The notes under the pieces were generated by a model that saw only the letters and a list, made by a program, of their open reading frames with translations, was not told the DNA's origin and ran no database searches. Below, piece by piece: positions 19,511-19,685 of a stretch of DNA of 64,000 bases; positions within the stretch are counted from its first letter, which is position 1; each line of letters opens with the position of its first letter. The stretch lies in NCBI RefSeq assembly GCF_054482595.1, contig NZ_CM137008.1; one strand, written 5' to 3'. The translations under genes and the position numbers were made by a program.

Positions 19511-19516
19511 CACTAA

Positions 19517-19541
19517 CGCCCGCACATTGCTGCGGGCTTTT
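19517..19541 (+). terminator. Intrinsic terminator after uspF
   Basis: gcccgcacattgctgcgggc followed by ttttt. Confidence 0.65.
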
Positions 19542-19685
19542 TGATTCATTTCGCAAATGTGCTGACATTTTCCCCTCTAATCCGTACCATACACGCCACA
19601 GTTTTTATATCAGATTTCTTATGCTGGGCGTTCCGGCATGACGCATACTCTTCTGATGCCATATAACGAATTGAGTCGCTTTTAA

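Follow-up and report, generated by a model that had tools for sequence, protein, structure and literature searches.

An unoccupied Rac-family attachment site in Escherichia coli ttcA and a predicted ttcA promoter that resembles part of the phage integrase gene

Codons 9 to 17 of ttcA in the stretch of DNA analyzed here (64,000 nucleotides, hereafter the window) can be assigned with high confidence to the unoccupied attachment site (attB) of Rac-family prophages, in an Escherichia coli lineage without a prophage at this position. The empty site is correct but ordinary and already published: Rac-free E. coli with adjoining uspF and ttcA genes and the TtcA′ form of the protein are in the literature, and the present instance is chiefly useful as a clean reference attB. 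The new point is the resemblance between a 50-nt block in the uspF-ttcA spacer (19555-19604, plus strand), which is predicted from comparative evidence to form the core promoter of ttcA, and a segment common to the integrase (int) genes of ttcA-targeting phages.

The window is E. coli core chromosome and includes, in order, nifJ/ydbK (13912-17436), MicC, ompN (17802-18935), uspF, ttcA, dbpA (20750-22123, minus strand), ynaL, FnrS, zntB, dgcM, and McaS. The uspF gene, encoding universal stress protein F, spans 19076-19510 on the plus strand (144 codons, terminated by TGA at 19508-19510), whereas ttcA, encoding tRNA 2-thiocytidine(32) synthetase, is intact and extends on the same strand from the ATG at 19686 to 20621 (311 codons); both were recognized from their open reading frames, the former together with its translation, and are annotated in genomes identical to the window at this locus. 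The distance of 175 bp predicted between the 2 genes was thus confirmed. The spacer (19511-19685) is native and uninterrupted, and a terminator scan located within it the predicted intrinsic terminator of uspF (19518-19542, plus strand), in which GCCCGCA and TGCGGGC form a 7-bp stem with 6 G-C pairs, followed by TTTTT. Over 12 kb, the window is 100% identical to E. coli O157:H16 Santai and several other E. coli genomes, and its identity to an O157:H7 genome amounts to 99.0%; the annotation of genomes 99% to 100% identical to the window lists only core chromosomal genes across it.

Several other features of the window were recorded along the way. The small RNAs MicC (17457-17577, minus strand), FnrS (22388-22505, minus strand), and McaS (25883-25978, plus strand) scored above the Rfam gathering threshold in their expected places. 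Positions 7399-7779, within a proline-rich autotransporter-like gene of the ydbA region, comprise 12.8 copies of a 30-bp unit (91% matches), and positions 1-7599 are only 96.9% identical to O157:H7 PV15-279, compared with 99.0% for the remainder. The ycjP gene (57061-57903, minus strand) is an intact open reading frame of 280 codons, whereas in O157:H16 Santai, a genome otherwise 99.98% identical, it is annotated as a pseudogene with an internal stop.

The K-12 MG1655 record has the order ttcA, intR, xisR, the remainder of Rac, and uspF, consistent with the original prediction, which placed Rac between uspF and ttcA in K-12. In a BLAST search with window positions 19300-20000, the segment 19300-19735 matched the uspF side of the K-12 prophage at 99.5% and the segment 19693-20000 matched the ttcA side at 98.7%; the outer flanks of the prophage thus adjoin each other in the window, in collinear order. 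The 2 matches overlap over 43 bp (19693-19735, plus strand), which alignment revealed as imperfect homology to the phage attP arm, where the phage carries its version of the 5′ end of ttcA. Three-way alignment with the K-12 attL and attR junctions, a comparison that had been proposed with the prediction, placed the att core at 19710-19735 on the plus strand: these 26 bp, AAGAAAGAACAATACAACCTGAACAA, coincide with ttcA codons 9-17, are identical in attL and attR, and correspond to the annotated attP of phage Rac-SA53. To the left of the core, the ttcA-side junction of K-12 holds the phage version of the ttcA start, an imperfect copy; to the right of the core, the uspF-side junction continues as phage DNA. 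The 2 core copies in K-12 are separated by 23,060 bp, which is also the reported size of the Rac deletion (PMC11014345).

Within the window, the core yielded a single match when up to 3 mismatches were allowed (chance expectation, 0), with no second copy. Searches of the 64 kb with IntR (tblastn) and with the whole Rac interior (blastn) recovered no phage sequence, the native flank itself being the sole match, and the native spacer contained none of the TTTGCCCC repeats that mark the phage attachment region. Since the core is single-copy, phage sequence is absent, and only core genes are annotated, we consider the site to be an unoccupied attB, and integration by a Rac-type integrase is predicted at 19710-19735. 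The original prediction of an unoccupied site devoid of integrase and phage genes accordingly held. It had also drawn attention to possible duplications of the att core and integrase remnants; no duplicated core was found, but the spacer does contain the 50-nt integrase-like block, which is native rather than a remnant of Rac (see below).

The 5′ end of ttcA is of the native type, as had been proposed. Its first 8 codons (19686-19709, plus strand), identified in the three-way alignment as part of what Rac-type integration replaces, encode MSQNQEIS, the sequence of the ttcC′ remnant that adjoins uspF in K-12. By contrast, K-12 TtcA starts with the phage-supplied MQENQQIT and differs from the window protein at residues 2, 3, 6, and 8, the same 4 changes that were given for Rac excision by Liu et al. 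(2015, PMC4632033), who reported that Rac-free E. coli and Shigella carry TtcA′, termed the ancient copy. The comparison with K-12 thus identifies the window protein as the pre-Rac TtcA′ form. A later account (PMC11014345) describes 3 base changes on Rac excision and lists Q6E and T8S, as opposed to the 4 residues of PMC4632033, and the exact crossover point may therefore not be settled. TtcA of Citrobacter and of Enterobacter asburiae begins with MSQNQ(D/E)(I/V)(S/T), and the spacers of both Citrobacter loci are homologous to the uspF-ttcA spacer of E. coli; this common N-terminus, together with the homologous spacers, argues that the E. coli form was vertically inherited. Across genera, TtcA residues 1-9 vary widely, whereas the protein is almost invariant from residue 10 onward.

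Both states of the locus are common in E. coli. The native uspF-ttcA arrangement is contiguous in 2,485 of 5,426 complete genomes (46%), a phage-type junction between the int 3′ end and ttcA is present in 2,913, and together the 2 states account for 5,398 genomes (99.5%); about a fifth of the complete genomes retain a short remnant only. In one of these, E. coli M16807 (L002), a 2.3-kb scar lies between uspF and ttcA (locus positions 4283-6537) and consists of a frameshifted fragment of a sit-type metal permease, a DUF1627 fragment, and the last 231 nt of int. The native spacer is deleted there from window position 19583 on (break at 19582/19583), and the phage-type TtcA N-terminus is fixed. 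A scar of this kind probably explains the "exception" of CFT073, which was described as prophage-free yet with a "lysogen" N-terminus (Liu et al. 2015, PMC4632033).

With gain and loss this frequent, as implied by the 54% of complete E. coli genomes that are occupied or carry remnants, the window could in principle derive from a lineage that formerly harbored a Rac-like prophage and lost it by precise excision, its site being cured rather than never occupied. Rac excision is indeed precise and restores exactly the sequence seen in the window (PMC4632033, PMC11014345), and the strains that match 12 kb of the window perfectly are of several unrelated origins. On the other hand, the native N-terminus and spacer are equally expected at a site that was never occupied, and because precise excision leaves no scar, the sequence is silent on the 2 histories; we regard a cured site as unlikely.

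The organization of the phage attachment region shows how ttcA is kept intact in lysogens. In the sequenced free phage PHB10 and in the IMG/VR contig L120, attP is contiguous and comprises, in order, the int stop codon, approximately 50 nt with TTTGCCCC repeats, an ATG with a ttcA-like start, the core, and further phage DNA. Upon recombination of attP with the 26-bp core by the integrase, the phage copy of the ttcA start, located directly downstream of int, takes over as the functional start of the gene; left beside uspF, as ttcC′, are the host promoter, 5′ untranslated region (UTR), and first 17 codons. Because attP carries a ttcA start, integration exchanges the promoter, the 5′ UTR, and the first 8 codons for phage sequence and leaves ttcA intact. 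The TTTGCCCC repeats flank the core on both sides in the phage (on both sides of Rac in K-12 and at positions 1800-2100 of the PHB10 locus) and are candidate arm-type integrase binding sites. The record of "Salmonella phage SPF_0923" was discarded as a source of free attP, since it includes host flank (uspF and ompN), and a search of viral contigs with IntR returned just copies 99% to 100% identical, with no diversity.

The integrase-like block surfaced as a single weak tblastn match of IntR inside the spacer (E = 0.13-0.34). As DNA, window positions 19555-19604 align with intR codons of about 343-361 (KRAGIRRRNPYHTRHTF), including an exact run of 15 nt. The matched integrase segment falls inside the Pfam Phage_integrase domain of IntR (residues 205-391, the catalytic domain) and aligns with the P-H-x-x-R-H-T-F box of Tn1549 Int. 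A weak protein-level match could reflect chance, and the 42-aa peptide of the spacer had no matches in Pfam or PHROG, the matched piece being too short for them. However, a DNA profile built with nhmmer from the last 300 nt of 5 intact int genes and nothing else found the block as its best match in the whole 64-kb window (E = 1.9e-4). Of 596 ttcA loci found, 80 were retained. The same profile segment recurred at "empty" sites of other taxa, 50-170 nt 5′ of ttcA and in the same orientation, in at least 9 other genera, with E values as low as 5.5e-12 for the 300-nt profile and 3.4e-15 for a profile of the block only. In 6 other genera, one constant profile segment matched upstream of ttcA with E values from 5.5e-12 to 1e-5, as exemplified by Enterobacter sp. 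BIGb0383 (5.5e-12), Superficieibacter (8e-11), Mangrovibacter (1.5e-10), Pseudocitrobacter (8e-10), Pectobacterium (2e-9), and Enterobacter asburiae (1e-5); weaker matches were obtained in the 2 Citrobacter loci, Budvicia, and Salinivibrio. The matches in the window and in other genera refute a chance resemblance, which we consider extremely improbable.

In K-12, the block likewise occurs on the uspF side of Rac, which, together with its occurrence upstream of ttcA in other genera, identifies it as part of the native locus rather than a remnant of Rac. Between the block and the ATG, the sequence is no more similar to int than shuffled versions are (274/1,000), and with no similarity to int past the block and no second core, the spacer was not classed as an integrase pseudogene. 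Interpretation of the block as an arm-type integrase binding site was rejected as well: the evident arm repeats are the TTTGCCCC elements, which are located near the core and are unlike the block. The only Rfam match in the spacer was a subthreshold one to STnc310 (E = 0.25).

The block is probably the promoter of ttcA, as judged from its layout and conservation. A promoter scan predicted a sigma-70 arrangement on the coding strand of ttcA, with the −35 hexamer CTGACA at 19562-19567 and, after 17 nt, the −10 hexamer TACCAT at 19585-19590, which begins 101 nt 5′ of the ATG; transcription would start near 19595-19598. When 30 sequences were aligned on the −10 hexamer, representing intact int genes, int remnants, and native sites from Enterobacteriaceae, Pectobacteriaceae, Budviciaceae, Yersiniaceae (Rahnella), and Vibrionaceae, they all conformed to CT[GA]G[CAT]A, exactly 17 nt, and TA[CT]CAT, followed by AC(G/A)C, with the −10 motif kept from Vibrionaceae to Enterobacteriaceae. 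The conserved span, from an A-rich stretch just 5′ of the −35 hexamer to a few bases beyond the −10 hexamer, is that of a core promoter, which counts in favor of the promoter reading, and in the more diverged native copies, variation sits in the sequence of the promoter spacer. The hexamers are moderate matches to the consensus. Across 1.9 kb, the scan returned 2 promoter-like sites, one of them the block, with no excess of sites over shuffled sequences, and the predicted 5′ UTR showed no more folding than shuffled sequences did (z = −0.01). The literature yielded neither a transcription start nor reporter data for ttcA.

Integrase genes and their remnants carry the block in a strikingly constant form. 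All 7 partial int remnants that border ttcA (in E. albertii, Enterobacter sp. Ag1, Enterobacter sp. Bisph1, Kluyvera, strain RIT691, Brenneria, and E. coli M16807) keep it, and 2 of them begin exactly at the block. Between K-12 intR and the int genes of either PHB10 or E. cloacae (both 70% identical in amino acid sequence), 14 of 15 codons in the block are identical, even at synonymous positions, compared with 2-5 of 15 in other conserved stretches of the same pairs. Such high identity could be due to recombination rather than to selection on a promoter. In 6 relatives of IntR that are not adjacent to ttcA (5 with 55% to 61% and the sixth with 54% amino acid identity to IntR), nearly the same motif is found, with Q, S, or T at 1 or 2 positions, but synonymous sites have diverged to an ordinary degree, and only 39-52 of 72 nt are identical.

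The hexamers vary among the sites. At the −35 position, the 4 intact int genes that keep TACCAT have CTGGTA; CTGGCA or CTGACA, both nearer the consensus, are found instead in 4 of 6 decayed remnants and in the majority of native sites. The ttcA-adjacent integrase of L175 (positions 3257-3306) has CAGGTA at −35 and TACCAG, with a Gln codon, where the others have TACCAT and His. In addition, a perfect TATAAT lies within the TTTGCCCC repeats of the L175 int-ttcA spacer, which is 48 bp long, compared with 51 bp in K-12. The combination of TACCAG and TATAAT implies that lysogens may use another ttcA promoter. The His codon CAT was discarded as a strict marker of ttcA targeting because L175 adjoins ttcA with Gln (CAG); in Yersinia, Buttiauxella, and one other relative, none of them adjacent to ttcA, His is encoded by CAC.

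Taken together, the comparisons suggest a reading that we put forward tentatively, with slightly less than even confidence: the ttcA core promoter and the catalytic-box codons may be one and the same 50-nt element, such that the int gene doubles as a promoter and the host copy descends from, or was overwritten by, int. The spacer probably holds the uspF terminator and, at 19555-19604, the native ttcA promoter, and the near-copy of the element embedded in the catalytic-box codons of ttcA-targeting integrase genes would keep the rebuilt ttcA transcribed in the lysogen. Any overwriting of the host promoter would have been periodic, by repeated integration and decay or by gene conversion.

The direction of transfer can be read in 2 further ways. 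The block might be a relic of an ancient ttcA-targeting integrase gene of which only the piece serving as a promoter survived, making the "native" promoter and 5′ end phage-derived. All conserved nucleotides of the block are fixed by the family-wide motif A-G-I-R-R-R-x-P-Y-H-T-R, which encodes CNGGNA, 17 nt, and TAYCAY and includes the unusual −35 hexamer CTGGCA as well as ATCCG just 5′ of the −10 hexamer. The loci further grade from intact int, by way of C-terminal fragments, into sites with the block only, in several genera the promoter spacer sequence itself is common with int, and the boundary in TtcA conservation at residues 9 and 10 points in the same direction. The same holds for Enterobacter sp. 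Ag1 (positions 5478-6030 of its locus), where 2 generations of ttcA 5′ ends stand in tandem. There, an old block and an old ttcC′-like start (ATGGCCACTCAAAAAGAACAATACAACCTGA) end at the core, 3′ of which come phage remains, a newer 3′ fragment of int that contains a second block, and lastly the current ttcA. Against such a relic, native sequence 3′ of the block is unlike int in the shuffle test described above, and the layout also occurs in Vibrionaceae, whereas an IntR-like gene was found in none of the 52 loci from outside Enterobacterales and none of the viral contigs contains the Vibrio form of the block. Given the occurrence in Vibrionaceae, a relic would have to be very old and to have been conserved over a long time. 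We regard this origin as plausible but short of probable; a pure "integrase fossil" is a weakened reading, given the lack of int-like sequence past the block and the similar promoter in Vibrionaceae without integrases.

Conversely, the host promoter may have come first, with the integrase motif happening to encode a near-promoter whose free codon positions were then selected, or gene-converted, toward the ttcA promoter. Consistent with this order, the promoter layout reaches past the apparent host range of the phage family, native sites and int have the block alone in common, and the −10 region of Vibrio is a palindrome, CGTATCATACG, suggestive of a function at the level of host DNA. Relatives away from ttcA, moreover, have the same amino acids with free synonymous sites, and the 3 with His use CAC rather than CAT. 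However, a host-first origin needs a chance match at approximately 10 of 12 positions fixed by the amino acid sequence, in addition to a −35 hexamer at the right spacing. It also sits poorly with the native sites of Enterobacterales, which have TACCAT as int does and not the stronger TATCAT of Vibrio, even though TAT likewise encodes Tyr, and with L175, which targets ttcA without the T of the −10 hexamer. We consider this origin rather doubtful. Gene conversion between the 2 direct copies in lysogens could link both views.

If the element is indeed common to the promoter and the integrase gene, it suggests a route by which phages can insert at the 5′ end of a gene without silencing it, with attP providing the start codons and the integrase coding sequence harboring a promoter. 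It likewise raises the idea that a host promoter can stem from a phage or undergo repeated homogenization with phage DNA.

With respect to the Rac attB and TtcA′ described by Liu et al. (2015, PMC4632033), the site itself presents no difference: the gene, the core, and the 4-residue N-terminal difference are the same, whereas the ttcA promoter and the integrase-like spacer sequence are not discussed there. CP-933R and Sp10 use the same ttcA site. For integrases that target tRNA and tmRNA genes, attP carries the 3′ part of the gene, so that the target is reconstituted from attP, and degraded integrase fragments are common beside the integration sites. In contrast to those targets, ttcA is protein-coding, and the common element lies within the int coding sequence and not in the attP arm alone. 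Relatives of IntR with 55% to 61% identity are found beside other genes in Serratia quinivorans, Pantoea sp., and the loci L172-L174 and L176, and 2 such relatives immediately precede a gene in the same orientation, encoding an AI-2E transporter and a short-chain dehydrogenase, respectively; this hints that the IntR family often targets gene 5′ ends. Among elements in protein-coding genes, e14 and phage 21, which occupy the 3′ end of icd (PMC6379469), resemble Rac in that the phage brings a copy of the end of its target gene and leaves the gene intact, the displaced host end persisting as a pseudogene (icd′ for e14 and phage 21, ttcC′ for Rac). Unlike e14 and phage 21, Rac-type integration replaces the 5′ end of the target, and the phage must therefore bring its own promoter, ribosome-binding site, and start codon as well. 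Qin likewise integrates at the 5′ end of a host gene, ydfJ, which it truncates and deprives of its promoter (reviewed in PMC6379469); Rac-type phages, unlike Qin, restore full-length ttcA.
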